NCBI GenBank assembly: GCA_903945175.1 | Contig: CAJAUM010000106.1 | Coordinates: 20,335 to 84,334, forward strand | DNA length: 64,000 nucleotides | Reading direction: 5' to 3' | Source: an uncultured Bacteroidales bacterium | GTDB lineage: Bacteria; Bacteroidota; Bacteroidia; Bacteroidales; FEN-979 | In this document: positions 1-16,693 of the stretch, piece after piece | Position numbering within the stretch: position 1 is the first letter of the stretch | Layout: every line of letters begins with the position of its first letter | Notes under the pieces: generated by a model | The model's database searches: none | Told to the model about the DNA's origin: nothing | What the model saw: the letters and a program-made list of their open reading frames with translations, nothing else | Made by a program: the position numbers and the translations under genes

Positions 1-272
1 GAAAAAACAGCAACCACGAGCAGTATGGCATTTTTTTTCAACCCGGTGGTCAATTGGCAAGTTCCCGAGAGCATCATCATTCCGAATACGAAAGACAAGA
101 TACCCGTAGATGGTGACATGGGCTTGTACCCTGGCAAAACACTTGTGAGGTTCTCTGCTCCAAACATCCATAAAATCACTACAATGAAGCCTGTTAACGC
201 TGCAATTCCGCCTGAAAACAGGATTACAAGACGGAGAACCCGGGCCTCACTGAAGGTTATTTGGTCTTTCAT
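1..272 (-). CDS. N-terminal fragment of an integral membrane protein that runs off the left edge; possibly a sensor partner of the adjacent receiver
   Basis: It is open-ended and therefore absent from the ORF track. The minus-strand ATG at 272 reads MKDQITFSEARVLRLVILFSGGIAALTGFIVVILWMFGAENLTSVLPGYKPMSPSTGILSFVFGMMMLSG... with no stop before position 1. The sequence has several hydrophobic helices. It lies 68 bp downstream of the receiver gene on the same strand. Confidence 0.45.
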   Translation of the reverse strand, partial: MKDQITFSEARVLRLVILFSGGIAALTGFIVVILWMFGAENLTSVLPGYKPMSPSTGILSFVFGMMMLSGTCQLTTGLKKNAILLVVAVF

Positions 273-724: not shown

Positions 725-794
725 TTTGGTTTATGTTCGTAATGACAAAGATAAATAATTTTCGAAGAATCTTTTATTATTGTGACAATTCCGC

Positions 795-802
795 TAAATT
801 TG
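795..802 (+). promoter_or_regulatory. Bacteroidota -7 promoter box (TAnnTTTG) for the TPR histidine kinase
   Basis: TAAATTTG lies 16 nt upstream of the ATG at 818. It sits inside the GTG-extended ORF, which argues for the 818 start. Confidence 0.4.
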
Positions 803-817
803 TTAAAATTTGTCTGT

Positions 818-2941
818 ATGAGGATAGGGCTCGTGGCAATTATTCTATTTTTGTTCATGTTGAATCAATTGACACAGGCCATTTCACCTCCGCCAACAGG
901 AACACAACCATCTCTTATTCAAACAGGTGCATTTGATACGACGGCAATCATTCCGGGAATGATTGCCGTACTGGAGTCAGGCGTACGGAGTGTGCAGGCC
1001 AGGCATCAGTTAGATTCCCTGATAGAATTAAGCAGCAAAATCGGCTTTATCCCTGGTGTAGCCAGGGGGATCATGCTGACCGGGATTTTTTATTGGGAAA
1101 ATCCTGATTCAGCGCTCAAATATTTACGGATAGCCCGTCAATACAGCAAGCAACAAGACTACAAATTTGGCTTTTTTCTTTCTACGCATAACTTAGGAAG
1201 CCTGTATCTCAATTATGGTGTGCAGGACAGTTCCATCTATTGGCTTACCCGGGCCTTAATGCTATGGAGGCCTGATATGGGTTTAAACAGGCATGCGAAG
1301 CTCCAGATCGATATTGGAGCATGGTATTCAGCACGTGAAGACTACAAACACAGTTTGGAGTTTTTGATTCCAGCCATGAATACGTTGAAAACGACAGGCG
1401 ATACATTGAGATTAAGGAGCTTGTACAGTACGCTTGGGGTTATGTATACGAACCTCCAAAGCTTCGAAAAGGCAAAGTCCTACTATGACCAGATACTCGC
1501 AATAACCCCTGAATCATTCATGAATGGACGGATATGGTCTGATACCTATAACAACCTGGGGACATTGTACCTGGATGTGAAGAAGGACCAAGATTCTGCG
1601 CTTATTATGTTCAGGAAATCACAGGAGGTCGCACTGAAATTCAAACTGTCTGAAAAGATACGCATGATCCATTCGAATATGGGAAGTACGTTCCTCATGC
1701 TTCGCCAGCAGGATTCAACTATATTTTATTTACTTTCGGCCAAGTCAAAGATAGATAAGTTCACAAGAAAAAGTCATTCTGCCGCTATTTTCATCAGCTA
1801 TGGCGTAGCAATGATAAATTCCGGAAAAATCGATTCAGCAAAATATTATGGGGAAAAAGGCATGGCACTGTTGAATGATCAGGGAACTGTAAATCTGAAG
1901 ATTATCGGCTACGAATTGTTATTCCAGATCGATTCGGTTAAAGGCAATTATCGGTCCGCCATCCGTTACCTGGGGCAGGCCAAAGAGCTGACAAAAAATC
2001 TCTACAACAGGGAGATCCTGATGAAGGTTGCCGAAAAGGAATTTTCGTACGAAATGGAACGAAAAAATGATGAGAACAGATACCTGAAAAAGGAAAATGA
2101 ACTTAAAGCAGGCATAATAAAAAATCAATGGTACATCCTTGGCTTTGCCATTCTTATCATACTCCTGATCTCTGTATTACTGATATTTATTGCCAATAAT
2201 CGGAAAAAATTTCAAAAGCTTAACAATACCAAGGATAAGTTTCTTTCAGTCATTTCGCACGACCTGCGATCGCCGTTCAATTCATTATTGGGGCTTTTGG
2301 ATGAACTCCATTCAGGGTATGATAGTTTTTCGGATGATGAACGCAAACATATCCTCATGTTGCTTCAGTCAACGAGCCAGAACACCTACCACTTGCTCGA
2401 AAACCTGCTGGAATGGGCTCGTTCACAGCAAGGACAGATCACTTCGGAACCCAAAATAATTTTTTTAAGGCAAGCAGTTGACAAAATTATTGAATTGCTG
2501 CAGGCCAGGGCAGAAAAAAAAGGGATCGAAATCCGAAATATGATTAAACCGGAAATGAAAGCATTTGCAGATCCCATTTTGTTTGATAACTGCATCCTTA
2601 ACATCACAAACAATGCGGTTAAATTTACACCGGCCGGAGGAACCATCACACTCACCTGTCATGACACCGAAAGATCTGTTTTTATTTGCTGCGCGGACAC
2701 TGGAATAGGGATACCGCCAGAATCCCTGAAGCAGCTTTTCAGGCTCGACGGTAAGGTAAAACGCCGCGGTACAGCCAATGAACCGGGTACCGGCCTTGGC
2801 TTGATCCTCTGCAAGGAGTTCATCCATCTGATGAAAGGGAAGATCACTTTGGTGAGCAAAGAAAATGAAGGCACAAAAGTGTTCATCGAATTGCCTGCCG
2901 CGCATGGAGTTTCCTCTCAGGTAAGTCACTCCGCAGAATAA
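818..2941 (+). CDS. TPR-repeat sensor histidine kinase (signal/TM, TPR periplasmic part, TM, HisKA + HATPase_c)
   Basis: H-box FLSVISHDLRSPFNSLLG, N-box ITNNAVKFTPAGG, G-boxes ADTGIGIPPE and GTGLGLILCKEF. An internal TM is WYILGFAILIILLISVLLIFIA. The start was moved from GTG 782 to ATG 818 (MRIGLVAIILFLFML...). Confidence 0.85.
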   Translation: MRIGLVAIILFLFMLNQLTQAISPPPTGTQPSLIQTGAFDTTAIIPGMIAVLESGVRSVQARHQLDSLIELSSKIGFIPGVARGIMLTGIFYWENPDSALKYLRIARQYSKQQDYKFGFFLSTHNLGSLYLNYGVQDSSIYWLTRALMLWRPDMGLNRHAKLQIDIGAWYSAREDYKHSLEFLIPAMNTLKTTGDTLRLRSLYSTLGVMYTNLQSFEKAKSYYDQILAITPESFMNGRIWSDTYNNLGTLYLDVKKDQDSALIMFRKSQEVALKFKLSEKIRMIHSNMGSTFLMLRQQDSTIFYLLSAKSKIDKFTRKSHSAAIFISYGVAMINSGKIDSAKYYGEKGMALLNDQGTVNLKIIGYELLFQIDSVKGNYRSAIRYLGQAKELTKNLYNREILMKVAEKEFSYEMERKNDENRYLKKENELKAGIIKNQWYILGFAILIILLISVLLIFIANNRKKFQKLNNTKDKFLSVISHDLRSPFNSLLGLLDELHSGYDSFSDDERKHILMLLQSTSQNTYHLLENLLEWARSQQGQITSEPKIIFLRQAVDKIIELLQARAEKKGIEIRNMIKPEMKAFADPILFDNCILNITNNAVKFTPAGGTITLTCHDTERSVFICCADTGIGIPPESLKQLFRLDGKVKRRGTANEPGTGLGLILCKEFIHLMKGKITLVSKENEGTKVFIELPAAHGVSSQVSHSAE

Positions 2942-2973
2942 GAAATGGAAACCGCGTTGCTATCAAAAGGGAA

Positions 2974-4020
2974 TTAACCGTATTTATTCATAAAAGGCAT
3001 GAGGAATGATACGACATTTCTTGCCAGAAACGCTGTATTATATCCGCCCTCCATCACAATCAGCTTAGGAATGTCCATTTCACTGATCAGATATTCTGCA
3101 AGATCGGTATAGATTTCCGACGACAATCTGAAGTTCCCAAGCTCCTCCTTCTCGAATGTATCCACGCCCAGGGAAACTACAAGATATTGGGCGCCGAATT
3201 GTTTCAACCTTGAAATTGCATCACGAAAGGCCAAAAAATACTCATCATCACTAATTCCCGGAGGAAGGGGAAAATTGATATTCTTCAATGTATTCTCCGA
3301 TTCAAATCCCGTGAGATAGGGGTAGGCATAATCCGGGTCACCATGAATGGATACAAGGAGGATATTCTCCAGGCGCTGAACAATATCCTGGGTGCCATTT
3401 CCATGATGGAAATCAATATCGAGGATTCCAACCTTAACCCTGCCTTTTGCCTCCAAAACACCCTGATCCTGAAGAAATTTCGCTGCGAGCGAGGCATTGT
3501 TCACAAAGCAGTAACCGCCTGCATAATCAAATCCGGCATGATGCCCCGGCGGACGGCACAATGAGAACACGCAGGATTCACCCAGCAGGAGATATTTTGC
3601 TCCGGTAAGCGCTGTAAATCCTGAAAACCTCACAGCTTCCCAGGTTCCCTTTACAATCATGGTGCAACTATCGGTCATATAAAAACCTGCTTTCCCTTCC
3701 GGACTTCTCGAAGGAGGATGATCGCGCATTTTGCCGAGTGCAAAAAACTCCGGCATGATACCTTCAGGCCACAATCCAGCTGCAATCCATTCGGCATAGG
3801 CTGTTTGCAGGTATTCAAGATATGCGGCTGCATGTACTTTATAGAAATGCCCCATCCCGAATTGTTCAGCCCGGGTAAGCGCTGCGTGCGGAATGTCCAT
3901 CAATGCCTCGAAGATGAGTTCCGCCCTCTCGGGAGATTCTCCATAAGCCACAACATGGTTTGAGATAAATTCCTTAGGCGGGTTGTGAAGGATATGATGC
4001 GGAGAATAGGTTACAATCAT
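2974..4020 (-). CDS. Histone deacetylase-family (HDAC / acetylpolyamine amidohydrolase / AcuC-like) Zn-dependent deacetylase
   Basis: Motifs RPPGHHAG, ILDIDFHHGNGTQD, SLGVDTFEKEE and MEGGYN are all present, so the catalytic His pair, metal ligands and Tyr look intact. Confidence 0.9.
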   Translation of the reverse strand: MIVTYSPHHILHNPPKEFISNHVVAYGESPERAELIFEALMDIPHAALTRAEQFGMGHFYKVHAAAYLEYLQTAYAEWIAAGLWPEGIMPEFFALGKMRDHPPSRSPEGKAGFYMTDSCTMIVKGTWEAVRFSGFTALTGAKYLLLGESCVFSLCRPPGHHAGFDYAGGYCFVNNASLAAKFLQDQGVLEAKGRVKVGILDIDFHHGNGTQDIVQRLENILLVSIHGDPDYAYPYLTGFESENTLKNINFPLPPGISDDEYFLAFRDAISRLKQFGAQYLVVSLGVDTFEKEELGNFRLSSEIYTDLAEYLISEMDIPKLIVMEGGYNTAFLARNVVSFLMPFMNKYG

Positions 4021-4034
4021 GGTTTTCGCCGCTT

Positions 4035-5528
4035 TCAGTCGATGATGTTCGGATCATGCGCCTTGATGTAGGTCAATAGCTCTTTGGCAACATCACTGAC
4101 AAGCAAAATTTTATCGTAATCCAGACTTACGTTATTCAGGTATTGAAGTACCAATGCATCTCCGATCATTGATTCCGGCAAAATTCCTGCAAAGAAAAAG
4201 CCCATTTTTTCAAACTCGGCAGTCAGCCAAAAGGTCAATGGATCTTTTAATTTCAAAAAGAGGTTAATAGATGCAACATGCTGAATGCAAAAGCTTTGAA
4301 GGAGTTTTCTGATTTGTTGCCTGATATCGGTTCCGTATGAGACAACAAAAATTTCGGCACAACCTTCCAACTCGTTCGCCCCGGATTTAATGGATGCAGC
4401 AGGACTGTCAAATTCAAGGGAATCACTGGAAGGAATGATATAGGAGTGGTTCGCACCCAGGTTCTGATAAAGTTTCGCTACCATCTCCTTGTGATGTTCA
4501 GGAACAAACAAATTATAAGAAACCGGTGGCATCATATACCTGAATCCCAGGGCCACGCTGATTCGCTGGGAGGCATCATCTGAAATTCCTTTGAATTTCC
4601 ATGAAGCCGGGCTGGTGGCAAGGAGGATTCCGCAATCGTTGATCTGGAATTTAATCATTGACTTTTGGGTAAAAATGTGGTTTGTAACCGCATAGGCATA
4701 TATTCCGCGGAGTTCCCGCTTTTTCGGCACCTGGAACAGGTAATCAACCAGTCTGTTCAAAGCTCCCTGTCCCCGGTATTCCACATTCACAAATACGAAC
4801 GTCAATTCGGCAATCGTATCCTCGGGATATTGATACAGCAGCGCCGAATGACCCATGAAAACATTATCTTTGGTTACAGCAACAGCAGAGATCATCTCTG
4901 ATCTTCTGTTCATCTCCACCAAACGTTCCGGGTAATAGATATGATCATCAAAAAATGTATATCCGTGGGTTTTATATGCACAGCGCGACACTTCAATTGC
5001 TTCATGTTCATCCAGCCCCCTGACATCGTATTCAATTTTTTCGGTGATGACAGCTGCAGTCTGGCGGGTTTCAAGACCTGCATCCTGATCTTTCCGGATT
5101 TCAACACCCGGAAGGTATTTGACCATAACAGTCTCCTTCCCCTGAGGGCCAAGGTTATGAAAGGATAATTCATCCATCACCTTCTGGATGAGATAAATTC
5201 CCAATCCGCTGGTTGAAAGATCATCGAGGATTTTAGTCACTTCATATTTTTTAATATGTGCAGGATCAAACGGAATTCCCTTTTCCTTCAGGGTGATTTT
5301 TATCCCGCCCCGGACTTTCTCACAGATGATGTCAAATGTTGGATTTTCCTCATCACTGGTATGAACCATGATGTTTGATACCGATTCTTCGGTAGCGATA
5401 TCGATTTGGTCCAGCTCATCACCGGAGAATCCGATATTTTTTGCAATTTCACGCACAAACAGCTGGATCATAAAGGAATAATCCAGTTTATTTGGGAAGG
5501 TCATTTTGATTGATTCGTTAATTTCCAT
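4035..5528 (-). CDS. Fusion protein: N-terminal RsbW/SpoIIAB-like GHKL ATPase (anti-sigma-type Ser kinase fold) + GNAT acetyltransferase + about 190 aa C-terminal region of unclear fold
   Basis: The N-terminal about 140 aa carry an N-box-like EESVSNIMVHT and a G2-like SGLGIYLIQKVMDE. The central part has a GNAT acetyl-CoA loop context VFVNVEYRGQGALNRLVDYL. It sits 20 bp after the upstream kinase gene and 14 bp before the HDAC gene. Confidence 0.7.
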   Translation of the reverse strand: MEINESIKMTFPNKLDYSFMIQLFVREIAKNIGFSGDELDQIDIATEESVSNIMVHTSDEENPTFDIICEKVRGGIKITLKEKGIPFDPAHIKKYEVTKILDDLSTSGLGIYLIQKVMDELSFHNLGPQGKETVMVKYLPGVEIRKDQDAGLETRQTAAVITEKIEYDVRGLDEHEAIEVSRCAYKTHGYTFFDDHIYYPERLVEMNRRSEMISAVAVTKDNVFMGHSALLYQYPEDTIAELTFVFVNVEYRGQGALNRLVDYLFQVPKKRELRGIYAYAVTNHIFTQKSMIKFQINDCGILLATSPASWKFKGISDDASQRISVALGFRYMMPPVSYNLFVPEHHKEMVAKLYQNLGANHSYIIPSSDSLEFDSPAASIKSGANELEGCAEIFVVSYGTDIRQQIRKLLQSFCIQHVASINLFLKLKDPLTFWLTAEFEKMGFFFAGILPESMIGDALVLQYLNNVSLDYDKILLVSDVAKELLTYIKAHDPNIID

Positions 5529-5548
5529 AGGAATTGTTGTATGTTTTT

Positions 5549-7858
5549 TTAGTTTTTTTCGGAAGATCCGTCTACACCTGGTGTTGTAAAATAGAATGTA
5601 CTGCCTTTTCCTTCCTCACTTTTCATCCAAATCTTTCCGCCTTGTTTTTCGATAAAATCCTTACAGAGGATTAAACCCAGACCGGTGCTTAATTCACCCT
5701 GGGTACCTTTTCGGTTGGTATTTTTATCAATATGGAAAAGGTTGGAACGAATATCTTCTGACATTCCTATACCGGTATCTTTGACTGCAACTTCAACCAA
5801 ATTGTCTTTTGTCCGGCGTGAACTGATGGTTACAGCTCCGCCTTTGGGAGTGAACTTGATGGCATTGGAAGCCAGATTGCGTATGATCGTATCAAACATA
5901 TTCGGGTCTGAGAATATTTTAACATCATCCAGAATTTCCAGCCTGATCGTGATATTTTTTTGAAGGGCAGCATCCGAAACCAATTTCAGGCTTTCTGCAA
6001 TTTTGTTTTTTAACATGAATACAGATGGGTCAAAGGAGGTTATCCCGCGCTGCATGCAGGACCATTCCAAAAGGTTTTCGAGCATTTCGTGGAGATTTGA
6101 GGCAGATTTTCTCATCTTCACAGCAATGTTCTGAATTTCATCCAACGTCAGGGTTGGTAACTCCTCAGCCATGAGCTGTGTAAAACCCATGAATGTACTG
6201 AAAGGGCTACGCAGATCATGTGCAATAATGGAGAAAAATTTATCTTTTTCTGCAATAGTTCTCGCGAGCTCTTCATTCTTGAGGCTAAGTTCTGTTTCTG
6301 CCAGTTTACGGGATGTGATATCTTTACCTTGAGCGATCGTAGCGATTGGGGTAACTCCATCCTGGGCAAACAATGTAGCTGAATTCCACAGAACGGTCCG
6401 TACAGAACCATCGAGGTGCAGAATTTTGATCTCTTTTGTCTCCCAACGTTCACCACTGAGGGTTTTGTGAATCAACGCCATAGATTCATTTACGAGAGAA
6501 GATGGGAATAAAATTTCCAGCGATTTTCCCACTACCTCTGCCTCACTGCGTCCGGTAAGGTATTCAAATGCATGATTAAAGCGCGTAATTCGAAACGTTG
6601 GATCCCATACGATGATGGGAGAATTGGCATAGTTTATCAGATTTTCAAGATAGGCATTGCTCTCACGCAGTGCATCTTCGGCATGTTTTCGATCTGAAAT
6701 ATCGTTATAGGTGATAACAACCCCAAAACCTTCAAGAGGAATGGGTGCAGCTGAGACGTTGATCCATGTGATCTGATTCTCACCTTTGACAATGCCCATT
6801 TCCACATTATTGACTTGGCATTTCTCTTTGAGTGCGCGGACACTTGGAAATTCCGAACCCTGCATGGGTGTGCCATCGGGCTGCACAATGCGCCACTCTA
6901 TGCCGCTTATGGTGCGCTTTTCCTGTTCTTCACGCGAAATTCCAAGTAAACCTTCGGCAATTTTGTTCGACTCGACAATCTTTCCGTCGGAGTCTGAAAT
7001 GGTAAGGCCTATCGGGAATGAATTGAACAACAACTTATACATCGCCAAACTGACACGCAGCGCCTCTTCTGACTTTATTCGTTCGGTGATATCTTCAAAC
7101 ACCGTAACGAAATGTTTCTTTGCCGGTGAACTGACAGAGATTTTAAAGTGCTTTCCAAGGGGTTCAAAATACGTTTCGAAGGCGCTTGGTTTTCCTGACT
7201 CTGCTGTTTGAACATAAATATCCAGGTAGGGAGGCACCTCCGTATCGAATGCATCCGTGACCAATTTGCCGGTAACATCTTCAGGCTTCAATCCTGTATG
7301 GCGCAAAAAAGCCGGATTTACTGAGAGTACAACGTAATTAACAGCTTTGTCCTGGTCGTCGTATATTATTTCATGAAGTGCAACACCATCCAGCATATTT
7401 TCAAACAGATTCCTGTAGCTGATTTCTGAAGTCTGCAACAATGATTGCTGCTGCTCAATCTGCGCACGCATCCGTCGCAAGGTCAGGTGGGTTCGAATCC
7501 GGGTCAGCACCTCAGCTGCCTGAAACGGCCTGGTAATATAATCTGCCCCTCCAACCCTGAAACCTTCAAGCATATCGCAGGCTGAACCAGATCCGACGAT
7601 GAAAATAACAGGAATATCCTGCATCGTATGGTCCGATTTAATTTGAGCGCATAAGTTAAACCCATTCAGGTCTGGCAGTGATGTATCGAGCAGGATCAGG
7701 TCAGGCACTAATTCCTTCGCTACAAGGATCGCATCCTTGCCGGCATCAGCAACATGAACCTGATATCTGTTCTCGGTCAGTATAGCCTGGAGGAGTGACA
7801 AATTCTCAAGGGCATCATCAAAGACAAGAACTTTTCCGTGAGTGTCGTCAATAATCAT
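5549..7858 (-). CDS. Receiver-PAS(x3)-histidine kinase (N-terminal REC, PAS/PAC sensors, HisKA, HATPase_c)
   Basis: REC: VLVFDD...LILLDTSLPDLNG...YITRPF. Repeated PAS/PAC-like segments include ITERIKSEEAL, NDISDRKHAEDAL and KDITSRKLAE. H-box FFSIIAHDLRSPF. NLASNAIKFTPKGG, KDTGIGM, STGLGLILCKDF. The start was moved to ATG 7858 (MIIDDTHGKVLVFDD) because the longer ORF overlaps the dnaE-family gene. Confidence 0.85.
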   Translation of the reverse strand: MIIDDTHGKVLVFDDALENLSLLQAILTENRYQVHVADAGKDAILVAKELVPDLILLDTSLPDLNGFNLCAQIKSDHTMQDIPVIFIVGSGSACDMLEGFRVGGADYITRPFQAAEVLTRIRTHLTLRRMRAQIEQQQSLLQTSEISYRNLFENMLDGVALHEIIYDDQDKAVNYVVLSVNPAFLRHTGLKPEDVTGKLVTDAFDTEVPPYLDIYVQTAESGKPSAFETYFEPLGKHFKISVSSPAKKHFVTVFEDITERIKSEEALRVSLAMYKLLFNSFPIGLTISDSDGKIVESNKIAEGLLGISREEQEKRTISGIEWRIVQPDGTPMQGSEFPSVRALKEKCQVNNVEMGIVKGENQITWINVSAAPIPLEGFGVVITYNDISDRKHAEDALRESNAYLENLINYANSPIIVWDPTFRITRFNHAFEYLTGRSEAEVVGKSLEILFPSSLVNESMALIHKTLSGERWETKEIKILHLDGSVRTVLWNSATLFAQDGVTPIATIAQGKDITSRKLAETELSLKNEELARTIAEKDKFFSIIAHDLRSPFSTFMGFTQLMAEELPTLTLDEIQNIAVKMRKSASNLHEMLENLLEWSCMQRGITSFDPSVFMLKNKIAESLKLVSDAALQKNITIRLEILDDVKIFSDPNMFDTIIRNLASNAIKFTPKGGAVTISSRRTKDNLVEVAVKDTGIGMSEDIRSNLFHIDKNTNRKGTQGELSTGLGLILCKDFIEKQGGKIWMKSEEGKGSTFYFTTPGVDGSSEKN

Positions 7859-7970
7859 AATTAAAAAGATTGGGAAAAGGAGGAGTAAATGTAAAAAGAA
7901 TAAATCGGATACGATCATGTTTATCCCTGAAAGAGGAAAAAAATATGGAATGCGAATTGATAAAACTGCA

Positions 7971-10900
7971 TTATCCCCTCGGATCACTTTGCAGCGGCAT
8001 CTTTGCCATTCTCTCCACATTCATGCTTGGAAAACCGAACTCCTCAACGATTTTTCCCTTGACGAGATAGATCCCATCGCCACGGAAAGGGTACTGGGTC
8101 ACTGCCTTTGGAAAATGGACGGTGTCGAAAAAATGGCCGTTCGCATCGATGAAGGTACCGAAATGCATCCACTCCCGTTTTATGGTGCGCACATATTTAA
8201 TGGTAACCAGCAATCCCAGCATGCGTATGGTTTTACCAACATGGGTACCCATGTCGTGGGCCAGGATATCTCCCCGGAACTTTGTCCCGAGCAGGTCGAA
8301 ATAGGTATGGGTAATGGGAAACCCAAGCAGTTCGATTTCGTCGTACACCTCGGAGAGAAGGTTTTGTTCAAGTACCGGAAGTTCGAATCTCTTCACTGTC
8401 GTTGGGAAGAGCAAAGGACATTTTTGTGATACGTGACACGTGACGCGTGACGCGTGACGATCGGTTGACTTTTGATCATTTCCCAGCAGCATATGCGCCT
8501 CCCACAGCAGTGAGGCCTTGGGCTTGCCGGTGAAACGGAATGCGCCGACCCGGATGAGAATGATCAACTGGTCGAGGGTGACCGGAACCCTTTGAATGAA
8601 ATCTTCCAGACTGGCATAGGGTCTCTCTGGGTAAATCGTCTTTCCAACCGTCGCCTCCAGTCCTGCCACGTGAATAAATCCCAGGAAAATGTCCTTCCCC
8701 CTGATGCAGGTCTTGTATTCGCTCCGGTTGACACAAGGTACATGCAGGTTGGCGCCGGAGATTTTGGCTTCGTTGAAATAGACCCAGGAGGAATAAAACC
8801 CGCCGAAATTATTGATCACGCCGGTAATGAACTCCAGCGGATAGTGCGCCTTGAGGTAGAGGCTCTGGTAGCTCTCCACGGCATAGGAGGCAGAATGTGC
8901 TTTGGAGAAGGAATAGCCGGCAAACGATTCAATCTGCCGCCACACCTCTTTCGTGACCTCTTCGGGATAGCCGGATGTCCGGCAGTTTTCAAAAAATTTG
9001 TCGATGATACGCTGCAGCTCCTTTTTTGACCGGTATTTTCCACTCATGGCACGCCTTATTACATCGGCATCGGCCAGGTCGAGACCGGCAAAGTGGTGGC
9101 AGATCTTCAGCACATCCTCCTGGTACACCATCACTCCGTAGGTCTCTTTCAGTTGTTCCTCCATCACCGGGTGCAGATATTTGAACTTATCAGGATTATG
9201 AAAACGAAAAATGTACTCTTTCATCATGCCCGACCTCGCTACGCCCGGGCGGATAATCGAACTTGCAGCCACCAGGGTGCGGTAGTTTTCACATTGAAGT
9301 TTCTTCAGCAATCCGCGCATGGCGGGACTTTCCACATAAAAGCATCCAATCGTCCGGCCATTCCGAAGCATCTCCTTTACCTTTTCATCCTCCTTGAAGG
9401 CACGTACATGGTGCACATCTACGCTGATCCCCTGATTTTTTTTCACGAGTTCCGCCGCCTCGTAAATATGGCCGATGCCCCGCTGACTCAGAATATCGAG
9501 TTTCTCAAAACCGATGTCTTCCGCCACGTACATGTCGAACTGCGTGGTTGGAAAGCCTTTCGGGGGCATATCAAGCGCCGTGTAACAGGTGATGGGCTCC
9601 TCGGAGACCAGCACCCCGCCGGCATGAATGCTTCGGATATTGGGAAAATCGGCCATCATTTCTCCCAGCTCATTGATCTTGCGGATGATATGATTTTTAT
9701 TGATCGCATCTTCGGGATGTTTCAGGAAGGCATCAATTTCCCCCTTTGGCAAACCGTGAACCTTCCCTAACTCCCGATAAATTGATTTATCGCGGAAGGT
9801 TGACATGGCGCCGAGCAGGGCCGTATGTTTGCGCCCGTAGCGTTTGAAAATATAGTCGAGCACTTCGTCGCGCTCCTTCCATGAATAGTCGATGTCGAAA
9901 TCGGGTGGCGAGGTGCGTTTGGGGTTGATGAAACGCTCAAAGTAAAGGTCGAGCTCAATGGGGTCAACATCAGTGATTCTCAGACAGTAAGCCACGATGC
10001 TGTTGGCGCCACTCCCCCGCCCCACGTGATAAAATCCGCGGGACATGGAATAGCGGATAATATCCCAGGTAATCAGGAAATAGGAAGAAAACTTCATCCT
10101 GTCGATAATATCCAGCTCATGCCGGATGCGACGCATTGCCTCTTCATGGTCTTTTCCATAACGGTATTCAAGCCCATCCATGGCCAATTTTTCCAGCAAT
10201 ATCAGGTCATCATAGCAGCTTCCTGTGAAAGTTTTCTTGTTTTTGCAGGCTTTGAAATCGAAATCAATGGAACACGCTGCCATCAGTTTATTGGTATTGT
10301 TGATGATCTCCGGGAAATCGCGGCAGATCTCCAGCAGTTCATCTGCAGGAAGCATTATCTCATCAGATGCTGCGATCTGATGAGGTTCCAGCCGGCTTAG
10401 CAGCACGTTGTGGTCAACGGCGCGAAAATTCCGATGCAGTTCATACTCCTGGCCGTTGCGAAATGTGACCGGCGCCATGAGTACCATTCGAGGAATGAGT
10501 TCGCGGTGGCGGGCGAGCATGAGCGGACTGAGATCGGAAGGGCGGATGCCAATATACGAATGACGATTTACGAATGACGAATGACGATTGACGATTGACG
10601 ATTGACGATTGACGAAACCGGGAAACGGACAAATTACGAACACATTGTTAAACTCCGGAGGGCTGTCGGGTAAAGGCAGGTTGTGAAGGTTGTGGTCGCT
10701 TAAAAATTCATTCAGTTCACGGAAGCCGTCGTTGTTTTTAGCCAGACCGGTGTAAAGCAGCTGATCGTCGCGGCGGAACTCGATCCCGGCGATGGGTTTG
10801 ATGCCCCTTTCCTTGCACACTGCAACAAATTCCATGATGCCGGTGGAATTGTTGATATCGGTAAGGGCCATCACGGGATTGACAGGTCCGGGTTGTACCC

Positions 10901-11000
10901 CGCCCGCCATACCATAGGCCTTTACCGCCTCGTCGACAAGATTTTCCATGGAGATGGTTCCATAGCGAAGGGAGTAGTATGAGTGGCAGTTTAGGTACAT
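7971..11000 (-). CDS. dnaE: DNA polymerase III alpha-subunit family protein; short 1009-aa paralog resembling the error-prone DnaE2/ImuC type rather than a replicative DnaE of about 1200 aa
   Basis: N-terminal PHP domain MYLNCHSYYSLRYGT...ALTDINN. Polymerase core motifs include PDFDIDY, ILSQRGIGHI, FSKAHSASYAV and a C-terminal OB region. The DnaE2-like assignment is an inference from length and N-terminus only. Confidence 0.8.
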   Translation of the reverse strand: MYLNCHSYYSLRYGTISMENLVDEAVKAYGMAGGVQPGPVNPVMALTDINNSTGIMEFVAVCKERGIKPIAGIEFRRDDQLLYTGLAKNNDGFRELNEFLSDHNLHNLPLPDSPPEFNNVFVICPFPGFVNRQSSIVNRHSSFVNRHSYIGIRPSDLSPLMLARHRELIPRMVLMAPVTFRNGQEYELHRNFRAVDHNVLLSRLEPHQIAASDEIMLPADELLEICRDFPEIINNTNKLMAACSIDFDFKACKNKKTFTGSCYDDLILLEKLAMDGLEYRYGKDHEEAMRRIRHELDIIDRMKFSSYFLITWDIIRYSMSRGFYHVGRGSGANSIVAYCLRITDVDPIELDLYFERFINPKRTSPPDFDIDYSWKERDEVLDYIFKRYGRKHTALLGAMSTFRDKSIYRELGKVHGLPKGEIDAFLKHPEDAINKNHIIRKINELGEMMADFPNIRSIHAGGVLVSEEPITCYTALDMPPKGFPTTQFDMYVAEDIGFEKLDILSQRGIGHIYEAAELVKKNQGISVDVHHVRAFKEDEKVKEMLRNGRTIGCFYVESPAMRGLLKKLQCENYRTLVAASSIIRPGVARSGMMKEYIFRFHNPDKFKYLHPVMEEQLKETYGVMVYQEDVLKICHHFAGLDLADADVIRRAMSGKYRSKKELQRIIDKFFENCRTSGYPEEVTKEVWRQIESFAGYSFSKAHSASYAVESYQSLYLKAHYPLEFITGVINNFGGFYSSWVYFNEAKISGANLHVPCVNRSEYKTCIRGKDIFLGFIHVAGLEATVGKTIYPERPYASLEDFIQRVPVTLDQLIILIRVGAFRFTGKPKASLLWEAHMLLGNDQKSTDRHASRVTCHVSQKCPLLFPTTVKRFELPVLEQNLLSEVYDEIELLGFPITHTYFDLLGTKFRGDILAHDMGTHVGKTIRMLGLLVTIKYVRTIKREWMHFGTFIDANGHFFDTVHFPKAVTQYPFRGDGIYLVKGKIVEEFGFPSMNVERMAKMPLQSDPRG
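8426..8460. repeat. Heptanucleotide tandem array, 5 units (TGAYRCG / TGACGCG type), inside the dnaE-family CDS
   Basis: Plus strand reads gtgatac gtgacac gtgacgc gtgacgc gtgacga. It is translated on the minus strand as ...DRHASRVTCHVSQ... Confidence 0.8.
10554..10618. repeat. Heptanucleotide tandem array, 9 units of (T/A)TGACGA-type (minus strand CGTCAAT x4, CGTCATT x3, plus variants), in frame inside the dnaE-family CDS
   Basis: Plus strand reads acgaatg acgattt acgaatg acgaatg acgattg x4 acgaaac (63 bp). It encodes a 3 x 7-aa peptide repeat, FVNRQSS IVNRHSS FVNRHSY. Confidence 0.9.
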
Positions 11001-11140: not shown

Positions 11141-11148
11141 TACTTTTG
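11141..11148 (+). promoter_or_regulatory. Bacteroidota -7 box (TACTTTTG) for the M14 peptidase gene
   Basis: TAnnTTTG lies 28 nt upstream of ATG 11176. It overlaps the TTG 11146 start used by the ORF track, which favours the 11176 start. Confidence 0.4.
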
Positions 11149-11175
11149 AGCGCCGAATCTCCTATATACAAGTTT

Positions 11176-12675
11176 ATGAACGCAACGGTAATATCAATTC
11201 TTTTTCTGGTTCTCACAGTATCTTGTTTTTCGCAGGAGCCCGTTGCACCTCTAAAGAAGAATGAGTTCAACAAGGCAACCTCCTATAATGAATTGACAAC
11301 CTTTGTTCAGCAGCTTGATGCGCAATCGGACTTGCTGCATGTTGAACTTATCGGACAGTCTGTACAAAAAAGAAATCTTTACGCGCTCACATTTTCTTCG
11401 ACGGAATTCGGGAAGGATCCGTTAAAAATAAAGGTGCTTGTGTTTGCACAGCAGCACGGAAATGAACAATCAGGCAAGGAAGGTGCCCTGCTTCTTGCGA
11501 AGGAACTGTTGAATCCGGAAAACAGATATCTTTTTGACAAGATTGATTTTGCCCTGGTCCCACAGGTGAATCCCGATGGATCAGAGGTAAATAAAAGGCG
11601 GAATGCAAACAACATGGATCTGAACCGCAATCATCTGATCTTAACAGAACCAGAGACCAAGGCTGTGCATGATTTTTTCGATAAGCATCTTTTTGAAGTC
11701 ACCATGGATGTGCATGAATATTCGCCCTACGGGGAGGACTGGATTAAATACGGTTACCGCAAAAATGCTGATGTTACAGTTGGGACAACGACCAATCTCA
11801 ATGTTTCCAGCAAGATAAGGGAAGTATCTGGTAAAAATTACCTTCCCTTCGTTTTGAAATATTTGAGTGACCGGAAATTTTCATCCTTTGTATATTGCCC
11901 GGGTGGTCCTCCTGAGATTGATTACATCAGACACAGCACCTTTGATATCAATGACGGACGACAAAGTCTGGGGATTCAAAACACCTTTTCATTTATCCAG
12001 GAAGGGTTGAACGGGAAGGATGGCTATGTTGAAAACCTTCAGCACCGGGCAGAAGGGCAAATGACCGGCATGCGGGGTTTGCTTGAATATGTTTATCTTA
12101 ACAAGGATATGGTTAAAGATCTTGTCACGACCGAAAGAATTAAAATGGTTGCCGCTGGTCCCGGTGAAGATGTATCTATTCAATCAGTTCATGTCGGAAA
12201 CGGGCAGAAGCTCATACTCCCGCTACTTTCCTACTTCTCAGGAAATGACACTGTCGTCACCGTATATGATTATCGTCCGGAAGTAAAATCGCTGCTGGAT
12301 ATAAAAAAACCGGTTGGTTATTTAATTCCCCGAGAATTGACCACACTTGTTGAATGGGCTGAAAGTCAATCGCTTAAACCTATTCAATTTAAAATATCAA
12401 GTACCTTCAAAGCAGAACAATATTTTATCAATAAGATCGACTCCATCGATTTTGAAGGAGATCGCACTGTTGATCCCTGGATTGTCGTGCAGAATTGCAA
12501 GGAAAACTTTCCGGATAGCGCTTATTTTTTCATATCAACAGCTCAATTAAAGGGCAATATGGTGGTACTGGCTCTGGAGCCAAAGTCAATGGTTGGCTTG
12601 ATCACATATACCCATTATGCTAATCTGTTAAAGCATGGCGAAGTTTTCCCCATTCTCAGGGTTATTGCAAAATAG
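11176..12675 (+). CDS. Secreted M14-family zinc carboxypeptidase
   Basis: Signal peptide MNATVISILFLVLTVSCFSQ. Zn motif QQHGNEQSG (HxxE), NRRNANNMDLNRNH, and second Zn His in MDVHEY. Confidence 0.85.
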   Translation: MNATVISILFLVLTVSCFSQEPVAPLKKNEFNKATSYNELTTFVQQLDAQSDLLHVELIGQSVQKRNLYALTFSSTEFGKDPLKIKVLVFAQQHGNEQSGKEGALLLAKELLNPENRYLFDKIDFALVPQVNPDGSEVNKRRNANNMDLNRNHLILTEPETKAVHDFFDKHLFEVTMDVHEYSPYGEDWIKYGYRKNADVTVGTTTNLNVSSKIREVSGKNYLPFVLKYLSDRKFSSFVYCPGGPPEIDYIRHSTFDINDGRQSLGIQNTFSFIQEGLNGKDGYVENLQHRAEGQMTGMRGLLEYVYLNKDMVKDLVTTERIKMVAAGPGEDVSIQSVHVGNGQKLILPLLSYFSGNDTVVTVYDYRPEVKSLLDIKKPVGYLIPRELTTLVEWAESQSLKPIQFKISSTFKAEQYFINKIDSIDFEGDRTVDPWIVVQNCKENFPDSAYFFISTAQLKGNMVVLALEPKSMVGLITYTHYANLLKHGEVFPILRVIAK

Positions 12676-12716
12676 ACAGTTCAAATAATATTCAACTTTA
12701 ACTTAAATTTATCGAT

Positions 12717-15419: not shown

Positions 15420-15422
15420 AGA

Positions 15423-16550: not shown

Positions 16551-16693
16551 AGGTCCGAATTTCTTCAGCAAAATTGGCGAAAAAAACAACCCTGTTGCGT
16601 TTTGCAATCATTTTTTTTTTATTTTCGTTCGATGATTTTATCAACCTGGGCTTTGAAATGGGAACATTAACACCATCCGACTGATACTCACCT

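Follow-up and report, generated by a model that had tools for sequence, protein, structure and literature searches.

An RsbW-like/GNAT fusion protein encoded beside an ApaH-type deacetylase suggests a signal-gated acetylation switch

The window, which here means the whole 64-kb stretch of DNA analysed, comes from the genome of a lake-water Bacteroidota. As listed in Table 1, three consecutive minus-strand genes encode a hybrid sensor histidine kinase, a fusion protein, and a zinc deacetylase. The original prediction of spacers of 20 and 14 bp agrees with the ORF coordinates. Since short spacers between genes on the same strand are typical of operons, this layout is unremarkable taken alone. 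The mechanical ORF of the kinase spans positions 5549-8020 and its 5′ end overlaps a DnaE-like gene (7971-11000). Thus, the true start is 7918 (public gene call, 789 aa) or 7858 (original prediction, 769 aa). All of the domains predicted for the kinase, an N-terminal receiver, three PAS modules, and a HisKA/HATPase core, were found by Pfam, as were the stand-alone receiver and the TPR kinase alongside. The membrane sensor fragment noted next to these genes is present; it is the beginning of a 671-aa PAS histidine kinase that runs over the left end of the window. A metatranscriptome contig (X25 record 2; 171 nt, 0 mismatches) crosses the fusion/deacetylase junction at 3996-4166, and another (X27 record 21; 151 nt) crosses the kinase/fusion junction at 5469-5619; these RNA contigs carry no strand information and may stem from DNA carry-over.

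Table 1. Features of the locus (window coordinates; aa numbers refer to each protein)
Feature	Position	Strand	Evidence
PAS histidine kinase (671 aa), 5′ part, cut by the window edge	1..272	-	Window's own contig
Stand-alone receiver protein, 127 aa	341..724	-	Pfam
TPR-containing histidine kinase, convergent with the deacetylase gene	782..2941	+	Pfam
ApaH-type (acetylpolyamine amidohydrolase, cluster 4) zinc deacetylase, 348 aa	2974..4020	-	Pfam, PDB
Spacer, fusion stop codon to deacetylase start codon	4021..4034	-	14 bp
Fusion, 497 aa: RsbW-like GHKL, GNAT acyltransferase, and C-terminal (probably GNAT-like) lobe	4035..5528	-	Pfam, PDB, AlphaFold2, Foldseek
C-terminal lobe, aa 318-497	4038..4577	-	Conserved across family; AlphaFold2 model
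GNAT acyltransferase domain, ~aa 160-312	4593..5051	-	Pfam Acetyltransf_1 aa 203-279, Foldseek/PDB, conservation
RsbW/SpoIIAB-type HATPase_c_2, aa 11-137	5118..5498	-	Pfam E 7.5e-18
Spacer, kinase stop codon to fusion start codon	5529..5548	-	20 bp
Hybrid sensor histidine kinase: receiver, 3 PAS, HisKA, HATPase_c	5549..7918	-	Pfam, public gene call
Kinase catalytic core	5579..6247	-	Pfam HisKA 538-604 (E 5e-9), HATPase_c 651-760 (E 2e-22)
Kinase, three PAS modules	6305..7417	-	Pfam PAS_8 148-204, PAS_7 279-394, PAS/PAS_9/PAS_4 404-518
Kinase receiver (REC)	7493..7831	-	Pfam Response_reg aa 10-122 of the 769-aa form, E 3.6e-21

The fusion protein is the core of the finding. Its architecture is agreed upon by Pfam, PDB searches, AlphaFold2, and Foldseek, and the AlphaFold2 model (147-sequence alignment) has a pLDDT of 90.9 and a pTM of 0.80. 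The RsbW/SpoIIAB-like GHKL N-terminus that had been proposed was recovered as HATPase_c_2. RsbW is the best match of this domain in the PDB profile search (against RsbW 6m36, E 2e-10 for a single-sequence search and 1.2e-24 for a profile search), and Foldseek aligns the modelled domain with RsbW and SpoIIAB (E 4e-9, target TM 0.87-0.92). Column counts revealed that the N-box (E48/N52), G1 (E82-x-G84), and G2 (G108-L-G110) are kept family-wide. The fusion nevertheless scores far under the RsbW equivalog cutoff (73.8 vs 145 bits) and also under the SpoIIAB cutoff.

The predicted GNAT core was likewise found by Pfam (E 5.5e-5, 23.9 bits vs a cutoff of 20.7). It has a conserved motif A (E250-Y-R-G253-Q-G255), a candidate general base E241, and the family signature V281-T-x-H284-x-x-S/T-Q288. 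Q288 is invariant, and motif A, E241, and H284 are invariant or nearly so; judged by its motifs, the GNAT is catalytically intact. E241 occupies the general base site of Gcn5/Pat-type lysine acetyltransferases. Structural and PDB-profile matches of the GNAT are generic, with SpeG among the best (Foldseek target TM ~0.66, 12-15% identity). The additional C-terminal domain noted earlier was modelled confidently as a separate alpha/beta lobe, for which no sequence match was found in Pfam or PDB searches. The order of secondary structures and an hhalign match to the first GNAT that is in register but weak (E 0.055) suggest that it is probably a diverged second GNAT-like repeat without motif A; on direct reading, IYYPERLVEM of the GNAT parallels LFVPEHHKEM of the lobe. 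Every motif quoted in the original prediction is present in the sequence.

The fusion has more than 795 homologues. They form 547 clusters at 50% identity (E<1e-30) and are conserved over the full length. In 147 sequences with 29-87% identity to the window protein, the ATP-binding motifs and motif A are kept. No paper describing the family was found in the literature searched, and a comprehensive review (PMC8556138) does not mention a GNAT fused to a HATPase or anti-sigma domain. This is a large, multi-phylum, uncharacterised family.

The deacetylase, originally described as a motif-intact HDAC/acetylpolyamine amidohydrolase, has all of the catalytic motifs and belongs specifically to the ApaH type of cluster 4. 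It matches Hist_deacetyl in Pfam (E 1.9e-56) and, over the full length, solved APAH structures in PDB (6phr, E 1.5e-71; 3q9b, E 9e-70), and is about 40% identical over the full length to the Mycoplana ramosa enzyme. A motif census showed that RPPGHHAG, D(I/L)DFHHGNGTQ, GVDTF, and EGGYN are invariant in 24 of 24 fusion-linked orthologues. The polyamine-selectivity glutamate, E106 of the M. ramosa enzyme, is kept in the window enzyme and is E, V, or L among the orthologues. In place of the PIS gatekeeper motif, the window enzyme has ELG and most of the orthologues have x-L-G. The cluster-4 enzymes that have been characterised deacetylate polyamines and retain some lysine deacetylase activity; a cluster-4 ApaH deacetylated the K549-acetylated AcsA of Bacillus subtilis as well as peptides in which position -1 is K or R (PMC11532494).

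Is the pairing of the fusion with a hydrolase conserved? I surveyed the gene immediately downstream on the same strand at 80 genome loci. In Bacteroidota, an ApaH-type deacetylase gene directly follows the fusion gene at 24 loci, the two genes being 9-20 bp apart or overlapping by 23 bp at 22 of these loci and 216 and 333 bp apart at the other two. The tight coupling of the two genes that had been proposed is borne out by this adjacency and by the RNA-derived contig over their junction. At 11 loci of Acidobacteriota, Verrucomicrobiota, Planctomycetota, and Sumerlaeota, the downstream gene encodes a cytoplasmic M23-like protein whose HxxxD and HxH motifs are intact; it overlaps the fusion gene by 1 bp in 6 of the 11. 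Among 12 Syntrophales/Smithellaceae-type loci, ten have an Amidohydro_3 hydrolase gene directly downstream (with a 3-bp gap in six), while the remaining two have it just upstream on the opposite strand. Three further loci have an M23 or M28 protein directly downstream. Thus, the fusion and a hydrolase form a conserved unit, and the conservation of their adjacency across phyla is beyond chance. The M23-like and Amidohydro_3 enzymes are not known as deacetylases, and it is from gene position only that I infer their equivalence to ApaH. Since unrelated zinc hydrolases replace ApaH elsewhere, a protein is no more likely to be the substrate than a small molecule. The fusion gene of distant clades has transporters or LuxC/LuxE genes beside it rather than hydrolases, so the writer/eraser logic fails for the family as a whole.

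The expected co-occurrence thus held for the HDAC gene and failed for the REC-PAS histidine kinase. The kinase gene, said to be hard-wired to the pair, immediately precedes it in just two cases, the window and locus L002, and is absent from that place in L001, which is as close to the window as L002 (87% identity). The two-component genes around the pair are reshuffled among close relatives: the TPR kinase, part of a variable two-component insertion, has its orthologue on the opposite side of the pair in L004, and orthologues of the stand-alone receiver lie near the pair in L001 and L004. The histidine kinase is therefore a lineage-specific neighbour outside the conserved module; it is a recent, strain-level addition and would be at most a lineage-specific input.

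The proposed link to partner switching was upheld by STAS, PP2C, and RsbW genes recurring beside family members. Among 72 genome loci, 21 have one or more of STAS, PP2C, and stand-alone RsbW genes within four genes of the fusion gene and 51 have none; among 75 metagenome loci, the numbers are 29 and 46. The metagenome loci represent more distant clades, in which the fusion gene lies within operons such as PP2C-RsbW-fusion-STAS; the counts there are 23 for STAS, 17 for PP2C, and 19 for stand-alone RsbW. Five Acidobacteriota or Verrucomicrobiota loci have a STAS gene immediately 5′ of the fusion gene, nine Bacteroidota loci have one adjoining the fusion-deacetylase pair, and a REC-PP2C gene is directly upstream at four Smithellaceae loci. 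In an unbiased Pfam census of 109 operonic neighbours, STAS ranked first and HATPase_c_2 fourth, and no sigma-factor family was among the 25 families listed. The neighbouring STAS proteins retain the phosphorylatable serine motif. The window has no STAS or PP2C gene. The STAS partner expected elsewhere in the genome was found 7 kb away on the window's own contig (L081, where position x equals window position 15529-x). This 103-aa STAS gene (L081 18649-18960) lies past the 671-aa kinase gene and a DEAD helicase gene, with four genes between it and the pair, and is the last gene of an M49/acetylating aldehyde dehydrogenase/STAS operon. Its counterpart in L004 and L010 is directly 3′ of the deacetylase gene. 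The link of the fusion family to partner switching is strong.

The presence of the fusion family in STAS/PP2C gene clusters suggests a signal-gated acetylation on/off pair. The N-terminal domain may be the interface to the STAS/PP2C modules, binding and probably phosphorylating a single-domain STAS protein, and the attached GNAT would be switched on or off by STAS binding or release, filling the place of the sigma factor in a classical partner switch. In the Bacteroidota lineage, the co-transcribed ApaH-type deacetylase would hydrolyse the N-acetyl product, giving a gated writer plus an eraser. STAS gating, the identity of the substrate, and reversal of the GNAT product by the hydrolase are what I infer here; a STAS-gated GNAT with an amidohydrolase reversing its product is the best reading, with about an even chance of being right. 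The most likely acceptor, named tentatively, is a small cationic amine of the polyamine type. The main alternative, a protein lysine such as one on acetyl-CoA synthetase (Acs), is somewhat less likely and has perhaps one chance in four.

It is possible, at similarly modest odds, that the conserved lysine of Acs, or other proteins, are acetylated by the fusion and deacetylated by the ApaH-type enzyme in the manner of Pat/CobB or AcuA/AcuC, with the RsbW-like and STAS domains acting as docking modules that join enzyme and substrate. E241, at the general base position of lysine acetyltransferases, is consistent with this. An Acs gene with an N-terminal HATPase_c_2 lies directly upstream of the fusion gene in L068 (Planctomycetaceae), and one with an N-terminal STAS lies two genes downstream in L034 (Verrucomicrobiia); both Acs proteins keep the RSGKIMRR lysine motif. 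The operon of the Bacteroidota STAS gene with an acetylating acetaldehyde dehydrogenase gene and the action of a cluster-4 ApaH on acetylated AcsA (PMC11532494) point the same way. However, no Acs gene was found in the window, clear Acs genes lie near the fusion gene at only 2-3 of the 80 loci, and acetyl-CoA supply could equally explain the link. Furthermore, the M23-like, Amidohydro_3, M28, and amidase partners are not known as lysine deacetylases.

Less probable is a metabolic sensor kinase or anti-sigma factor, in which the GNAT and C-terminal lobes would serve only to sense acetyl-CoA or acyl-CoA and to tune the kinase activity toward STAS, or the hold on a sigma factor, so that the output is gene expression and the hydrolase gene is merely co-expressed. 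The intact ATP-binding motifs, the RsbW match, the operons already holding PP2C, RsbW, and STAS genes, and a C-terminal lobe without motif A would all suit such a sensor. On the other hand, the near-invariant GNAT residues are those of a working enzyme, the census lacks sigma-factor families, and the RsbW equivalog cutoff is missed widely. A different zinc amidohydrolase family lies directly downstream in each of three clades, often translationally coupled, which is hard to explain without a catalytic product. It is very improbable that chance or local rearrangement brought the three genes together and that each works on its own. The restricted occurrence of the upstream kinase gene and the shuffling of two-component genes would agree with it, but adjacency with short spacers or overlaps is kept across several phyla, RNA contigs span both junctions, and the identities of fusion and deacetylase to the window proteins drop in parallel (87/81-85, 80/78, 71/65, and 64/60%). 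For the fusion-deacetylase pair, this explanation is already largely refuted.

The best reading, a STAS-gated GNAT, resembles the RsbW-RsbV-RsbU and SpoIIAB-SpoIIAA-SpoIIE modules in the fold and ATP-binding motifs of the N-terminal domain and in the recurrent neighbours, namely STAS proteins with a phospho-acceptor serine, PP2C, and extra RsbW-like kinases. It differs from them in that no sigma factor recurs near the fusion gene, the RsbW-like domain is covalently joined to an enzyme, and the score lies far below both equivalog cutoffs. Enzyme outputs are known from the Pseudomonas aeruginosa HsbR-HsbA-HsbD diguanylate cyclase system (PMC5085249) and the Anabaena HenR/STAS-glycosyltransferase system (PMC13555669), and a non-sigma switch from Vibrio fischeri SypE/SypA, in which SypE is a multi-domain protein with an RsbW-like domain (PMC10120452). 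There, as proposed here, the STAS phosphorylation state controls an enzyme or process, not transcription; in those systems, STAS binds a separate output enzyme, whereas here the GNAT is fused to the RsbW-like domain. No partner switch with an acetyltransferase output was found in the literature searched.

Like Pat/CobB and AcuA/AcuC, the locus pairs a GNAT writer with a deacetylase eraser, and Acs genes with STAS or RsbW-like extensions lie near the fusion gene in two phyla. A regulatory domain fused to a GNAT is also shared with enzymes such as the cAMP-dependent mycobacterial PatA. Here, however, that domain is GHKL kinase-like and not NDP-forming acyl-CoA-synthetase-like, cNMP, or ACT, the eraser belongs to the ApaH type (cluster 4) and not to the sirtuins or AcuC (cluster 2c), and no AcuB is present. 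The pair resembles the SpeG/SSAT and ApaH/HDAC10 polyamine enzymes in the identity of its deacetylase to the M. ramosa APAH with all catalytic residues kept, in the glutamate equivalent to E106 that the window enzyme has, and in the presence of SpeG among the best structural matches of the GNAT. SpeG is a 170-aa dodecameric enzyme without fused domains, and its likeness to the GNAT is generic; the gatekeeper replacement also sets the deacetylase apart from ApaH polyamine enzymes. No regulated writer/eraser operon for polyamines is known from the literature searched. The tandem-GNAT enzymes MshD, Eis, N-myristoyltransferase, and FemX carry a degenerate second GNAT-like lobe after an active GNAT. 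With no detectable sequence relationship to these enzymes, the fusion probably has the same lobe order, which would fit an acceptor site between the lobes.

The original prediction described three closely packed minus-strand genes: a sensor kinase, a fusion of an RsbW-like ATPase with a GNAT acetyltransferase, and a deacetylase. This layout and every domain named in it were confirmed by ORF calls and Pfam. The spacers within the trio are 14 and 20 bp in length. The 5′ end of the kinase ORF runs over the stop codon of the upstream DnaE-type polymerase gene, and thus the kinase start should be either 7918, as in the public gene call for the same contig, or 7858, as originally predicted.

Genes of the fusion locus and its upstream neighbours, in window positions
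Feature	Position	Strand	Domains or source of label
Deacetylase ORF, 348 aa	2974-4020	-	Pfam Hist_deacetyl, E 1.9e-56
Fusion ORF, 497 aa	4035-5528	-	Pfam HATPase_c_2 (aa 11-137) and Acetyltransf_1 (aa 203-279)
Kinase ORF	5549-8020	-	Pfam Response_reg, three PAS modules, HisKA, HATPase_c
DnaE-type polymerase, 1009 aa	7971-11000	-	PHP, DNA_pol3_alpha, finger and HHH domains
M14 carboxypeptidase	11146-12675		Pfam, precomputed gene table of the contig
MR_MLE-type dipeptide epimerase	12717-13826		Pfam, precomputed gene table of the contig
M28 peptidase	13827-15419	-	Pfam, precomputed gene table of the contig
Amidohydrolase	15423-16607	-	Pfam, precomputed gene table of the contig

The source organism is a lake-water Bacteroidota, with Draconibacterium and Prolixibacteraceae as its nearest named relatives. 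Public lake metatranscriptomes cover all three genes at low depth, and no contig among them covers 7591-8300. A 171-nt RNA contig (3996-4166, no mismatches) crosses the fusion/deacetylase junction, and a 151-nt contig from a related strain (5469-5619) crosses the kinase/fusion junction. These contigs support the co-transcription of the three genes, although they carry no strand information and could stem from DNA carry-over. A scan of 2800-8200 for terminators and for consensus sigma-70 promoters, a type other than those of Bacteroidota, gave counts not above the shuffled expectation and left the spacers empty.

It was found that the N-terminal domain of the fusion is of the GHKL/RsbW type, as predicted. 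The Pfam match to HATPase_c_2 has an E-value of 7.5e-18 (65 bits against a cutoff of 27.4), and a PDB search with the family profile matched RsbW at E 1.2e-24. An AlphaFold2 model of the fusion was built on a 147-sequence alignment (pLDDT 90.9, pTM 0.80), and a single-sequence model (pLDDT 35) was discarded. Disorder is confined to a short linker (aa 145-156). The N-terminal domain has a GHKL (Bergerat) fold of about 140 aa, which Foldseek superposed on B. subtilis RsbW (6m36/6m37) and on SpoIIAB (1tid/1l0o) with E-values of 4e-9 to 1e-7 and a target TM of 0.75-0.92. The N-box (E48 in 131/147, N52 in 111/147), G1 (D/E82 in 133/147, Glu in the window; G84 in 144/147), and G2 (G108 in 116/147, G110 in 117/147) are kept among the 147 homologues, which are 29-87% identical to the window protein. 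Thus, the domain is likely to bind ATP. Judged by score, the fusion is not an RsbW equivalog; it reached 73.8 bits against 145 for RsbW (NCBIfam NF003144) and 35.3 bits against 135 for SpoIIAB (TIGR01925).

The GNAT core was likewise borne out by Pfam, motif A, Foldseek, and the PDB profile. The Acetyltransf_1 match is a narrow pass (23.9 bits against a gathering score of 20.7). In the 147-sequence alignment, motif A (E250-Y-R-G253-Q-G255) keeps R252 in 137 and G255 in 114 sequences, E241 in the preceding strand is nearly invariably Glu, and the family signature V-T-x-H284-x-x-S/T-Q288 has an invariant Q288. The Foldseek and PDB-profile matches of the GNAT domain are small generic GNATs (SpeG, RimJ-like enzymes, AAC(6′), and arylalkylamine N-acetyltransferases), and say nothing firm about the acceptor. 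A type II GNAT toxin was also considered and ruled out by size and gene context: TacT, AtaT, and KacT are GNATs of about 160-180 aa with an adjacent RHH/DUF1778 antitoxin, whereas the fusion has 497 aa, three domains, and a deacetylase and a kinase as neighbours.

Conservation of the C-terminal lobe (aa 318-497) equals that of the other parts of the protein. Only noise came out for the lobe when 29 members were scanned against Pfam (E up to 10) and the PDB was searched with a profile. When aligned with the first GNAT by hhalign, the lobe was in register with a statistically weak E-value of 0.055, and an element of the first GNAT ('IYYPERLVEM') is repeated in the lobe ('LFVPEHHKEM'). Together with the order of the secondary structures, these likenesses suggest a degenerate second GNAT-like lobe lacking motif A. 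Since Pfam and PDB gave no sequence match and the hhalign match is weak, this second GNAT is still hypothetical and unproven.

The fusion belongs to a large family. There are more than 795 word-indexed homologues, whose source annotations are only 'ATP-binding protein', 'GNAT family N-acetyltransferase', or 'RsbW'. An exhaustive search (E<1e-30) gave 547 clusters at 50% identity, nearly all of about 500 aa and aligning end to end. For a survey of gene context, ORFs were called in 80 genome loci and clustered, and the representatives were annotated. These loci belong to Bacteroidota, Acidobacteriota, Verrucomicrobiota, Planctomycetota, Syntrophales/Smithellaceae, Sumerlaeota, and others. In 24 Bacteroidota loci, an acetylpolyamine amidohydrolase (ApaH)-type deacetylase is the next same-strand gene downstream of the fusion, which upholds the predicted tight coupling of the two genes. 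The genes are separated by 9-20 bp or overlap by 23 bp in 22 of the 24 loci, and the gap is 216 and 333 bp in the other two. The identities of both proteins to those of the window drop in parallel across loci. The kinase did not hold up as a conserved partner of the pair. Of the 80 loci, only the window and L002 have a histidine kinase gene directly upstream, while the equally close L001 (87% identity) has the polymerase gene followed by the fusion with no kinase between them. Genes for a TPR kinase, a receiver, and a PAS kinase around the pair are reshuffled among close relatives. Thus, the kinase is a recent and variable addition.

Outside Bacteroidota, other hydrolases occupy the position of the deacetylase. 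In 11 loci of Acidobacteriota, Verrucomicrobiota, Planctomycetota, and Sumerlaeota, the next downstream gene encodes an M23-like protein of about 215 aa with intact HxxxD and HxH motifs (cluster c3; L030:9461-10108, L035:9461-10114, and nine more). Its gene overlaps the stop codon of the fusion gene by 1 bp in six of the 11 loci. The protein is cytoplasmic and has no signal peptide, and its top NCBIfam match is the middle of PRK06148, a 1015-aa 'hypothetical protein' model. A cytoplasmic M23-type amidase in the position of an eraser would be unusual. In Syntrophales/Smithellaceae-type loci, an Amidohydro_3 hydrolase of about 560 aa is encoded downstream of the fusion in 10 of 12 cases (with a 3-bp gap in six) and just upstream on the opposite strand in the remaining two. 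M23 or M28 proteins follow the fusion in three further genome loci. Thus, three unrelated zinc-dependent amide hydrolases are found in one translationally coupled slot. No other observation argues as strongly for an amide product that is made by the GNAT and hydrolysed by the neighbouring enzyme.

The pairing is not absolute even inside the clade. In L017, L019, and L071 (Bacteroidia/Prolixibacteraceae, fusions 70-72% identical), the fusion is followed not by a deacetylase gene but by a convergent YjbR-family gene. In a Porphyromonadaceae MAG contig, only the first 118 deacetylase residues are encoded after the fusion (L014:2194-2547). This may reflect a truncated or decayed gene, or else an error in the assembly of the contig.

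The deacetylase of the window matches solved acetylpolyamine amidohydrolases over its full length (6phr, E 1.5e-71, query aa 4-345; 3q9b of M. ramosa, E 9e-70, aa 3-340; 9gkz, E 2e-66), including the N-terminal L1/L2 region of the polyamine-specificity loop. It is 39.7% identical to the M. ramosa enzyme, MrApaH. By this full-length similarity, it belongs to cluster 4 of the bacterial classical deacylases. Those enzymes of the cluster that have been characterised deacetylate polyamines, and they are still active as lysine deacetylases on acetylated B. subtilis AcsA and on peptides whose position -1 is K or R (PMC11532494). The motifs RPPGHHAG, DIDFHHGNGTQ, GVDTF, and EGGYN are invariant in all 24 fusion-linked orthologues, so that the enzyme is motif-intact as predicted, and the zinc ligands (D, H, D), the tandem His, and the catalytic Tyr are all kept. 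The polyamine-specificity motifs are not decisive. The window has the Glu equivalent to MrApaH E106, a polyamine-selectivity residue ('SPEGKAGFY'), but this position varies among E, V, and L in the fusion-linked clade. Instead of the PIS gatekeeper motif, the window enzyme has ELG and most fusion-linked orthologues have x-L-G.

Does the fusion have partner-switching proteins around it? In the 64-kb window, no STAS, PP2C, Acs (acetyl-CoA synthetase), Amidohydro_3, or M23-like gene was found; tblastn gave only cross-matches to receiver domains. Outside the window, a 103-aa STAS protein is encoded on the same contig, 7 kb from the fusion, and may be the partner sought in the prediction. Its gene closes an operon with genes for an M49 peptidase and an acetylating acetaldehyde dehydrogenase. 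Its orthologue lies directly after the deacetylase gene in L004, L007, L008, and L010 and directly upstream in L020-L022. Five loci of Acidobacteriota or Verrucomicrobiota have a different STAS gene directly before the fusion, and four of Smithellaceae have a REC-PP2C gene before it, together with CheA and CheB. All STAS proteins of these genome loci retain the phosphorylatable serine motif. The fullest local module among close relatives was found in L008 (80% identity to the window). Here the fusion and the deacetylase are followed by a STAS gene on the minus strand, a stand-alone 138-aa RsbW-like kinase, and a second STAS gene (L008:9995-11267), and a 744-aa STAS-containing protein is encoded divergently upstream.

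A metagenome scan seeded with one distant clade gave 80 further loci. Complete modules often surround these fusions, such as NMT1-PP2C-RsbW-fusion-STAS (L119), PP2C-RsbW-STAS-fusion-STAS (L134), and RsbW/PP2C-fusion-STAS (L103). Within four genes of the fusion, STAS, PP2C, and other RsbW genes occur in 15, 4, and 3 of 72 genome loci and in 23, 17, and 19 of 75 metagenome loci. In an unbiased Pfam census of 109 probable operon neighbours, STAS ranks first (15) and HATPase_c_2 fourth (9), with SpoIIE at 5. The 25 families listed for these neighbours include no sigma-factor family, and none was seen beside the window gene. Judged by its neighbourhoods, the fusion behaves as a component of partner-switching systems without a recurrent sigma-factor partner.

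An acetyl-CoA theme was also found. In a Planctomycetaceae locus, the gene directly upstream of the fusion encodes a bona fide acetate-CoA ligase, which scored 1035 bits where the cutoff is 657 and has an RsbW-like HATPase_c_2 domain at its N-terminus (L068:5313-7697, plus strand). In a Verrucomicrobiia locus, an Acs with an N-terminal STAS domain (STAS HMM, E 6e-17) is encoded two genes downstream (L034:10241-12694, plus strand). As far as found, Acs fused to partner-switch domains has no earlier description. Both keep the 'RSGKIMRR' lysine motif, whose lysine is the residue acetylated by Pat and AcuA in model organisms. On the contig of the window, the STAS gene is co-oriented with the dehydrogenase gene and lies 10 bp downstream of it (L081:18649-20404). 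The dehydrogenase is of the EutE/AdhE N-terminal type (E 1e-146 to 1e-181, below equivalog cutoffs). The extended Acs genes and this operon suggest that the network is linked to acetyl-CoA metabolism.

The architecture and gene context are solid, and a hypothetical mechanism may be built on them. The RsbW-like domain would bind, and probably phosphorylate, a STAS protein. PP2C phosphatases and additional RsbW kinases encoded elsewhere would determine whether the STAS protein is phosphorylated, and this state would gate the fused GNAT. The ApaH-type enzyme would undo the acetylation. The substrate is equally hypothetical. My tentative choice for the acceptor is a polyamine-type small cationic amine, since the eraser is of the ApaH lineage, its substitutes are general amidases or peptidases and not known protein deacetylases, and distant clades have transporter or biosynthetic neighbours (MFS-HEAT-cNMP, SMR, ABC, LuxC/LuxE). 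The main rival is a protein lysine, for instance that of Acs. The extended Acs proteins beside the fusion in L068 and L034, with their acceptor lysine intact, keep this target in play, but tblastn found no Acs gene in the 64-kb window, and I regard a protein target as rather unlikely. It is more improbable still that the fusion is purely an acetyl-CoA-sensing kinase or an anti-sigma factor, because the catalytic residues of the GNAT are conserved and no sigma partner was found among the operon neighbours listed.

A broader reading is conceivable, if doubtful: the regulated bacterial acyltransferases of this family may form a class of their own, new to biology, where the output of the partner switch is an enzyme fused to the RsbW-like domain. 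The GHKL domain would be a tethered 'anti-enzyme' that unphosphorylated STAS relieves, or a docking site that it engages. The STAS- or RsbW-extended Acs would belong to this network too, and the cell would switch the making and the use of acetyl-CoA together, and the eraser would have been swapped at least three times for unrelated zinc hydrolases (ApaH, M23-like, Amidohydro_3).

Partner switching is understood chiefly as sigma-factor control. Few fused sensor domains, such as the Pat-type, cNMP, and ACT domains, are known in the regulation of bacterial acetylation. The fusion resembles a partner-switch component as well as a GNAT with a fused regulatory domain. It shares the GHKL fold, the ATP motifs, and nearby STAS genes with RsbW and SpoIIAB, but differs from them in having no sigma-factor family among its listed operon neighbours and in the missed equivalog scores. 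It is not of the Pat or AcuA type, since both the regulatory domain and the eraser class differ. Pat-type enzymes have a regulatory domain like an NDP-forming acyl-CoA synthetase, whereas the fusion has HATPase_c_2, a GNAT, and an unassigned lobe; compared with the AcuA/AcuB/AcuC operon, the window deacetylase is of the ApaH type, not AcuC, and AcuB is absent. Partner switches with an enzyme as output have been described for HsbA-HsbD (PMC5085249) and for a STAS-glycosyltransferase system of Anabaena (PMC13555669). A comprehensive review of bacterial acetylation lists no RsbW-like domain fused to an acetyltransferase (PMC8556138). A search of the freely accessible literature, on RsbW, anti-sigma, or HATPase_c_2 domains with a GNAT or acetyltransferase and on partner switching with STAS and Acs, gave no account of this architecture.

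If the proposal is true, the family would join the two fields, with Ser-phosphorylation/STAS signalling directly gating an acetyl-CoA-dependent transferase. With at least 547 clusters over Bacteroidota, Acidobacteriota, Verrucomicrobiota, Planctomycetota, Syntrophales, and others, it would suggest what many orphan STAS/PP2C/RsbW modules may do in phyla without an identified SigB-type output. The eraser replacement would be a natural experiment that could expose new deacylase chemistries. Through the fusion, one could also test how signals control the homeostasis of polyamines or acetyl-CoA in uncultured bacteria that are abundant in freshwater and sediment.

Some other neighbours were observed. 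Directly downstream (-32 to +52 bp) of distant family members lie genes of cluster n4 (L100:1691-4699 and 11 other metagenome loci), encoding proteins of about 1000 aa in which an MFS transporter is joined to HEAT repeats and a cyclic-nucleotide-binding domain. The fusions of another clade have genes for LuxC-type acyl-CoA reductase/AMP-binding proteins, LuxE acyl-protein synthetase, MFS_3, and phosphatidylserine-decarboxylase-like proteins beside them (L137:2143-4704, L143:7494-8624, L143:4736-5953, L144:4149-5423), which points to a lipid or amine biosynthetic context. Synteny of the DnaE-type polymerase gene with the fusion and deacetylase genes extends to L001, L002, L004, L010, and L020-L022. 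The window polymerase scored below the equivalog cutoffs of both replicative DnaE and error-prone DnaE2, and has a short imperfect peptide repeat, VNRQSSIVNRHSSFVNRHS, at about 10557-10613. Beyond it, the genes at 11146-16607 form a cluster resembling a peptide or murein-peptide recycling set.
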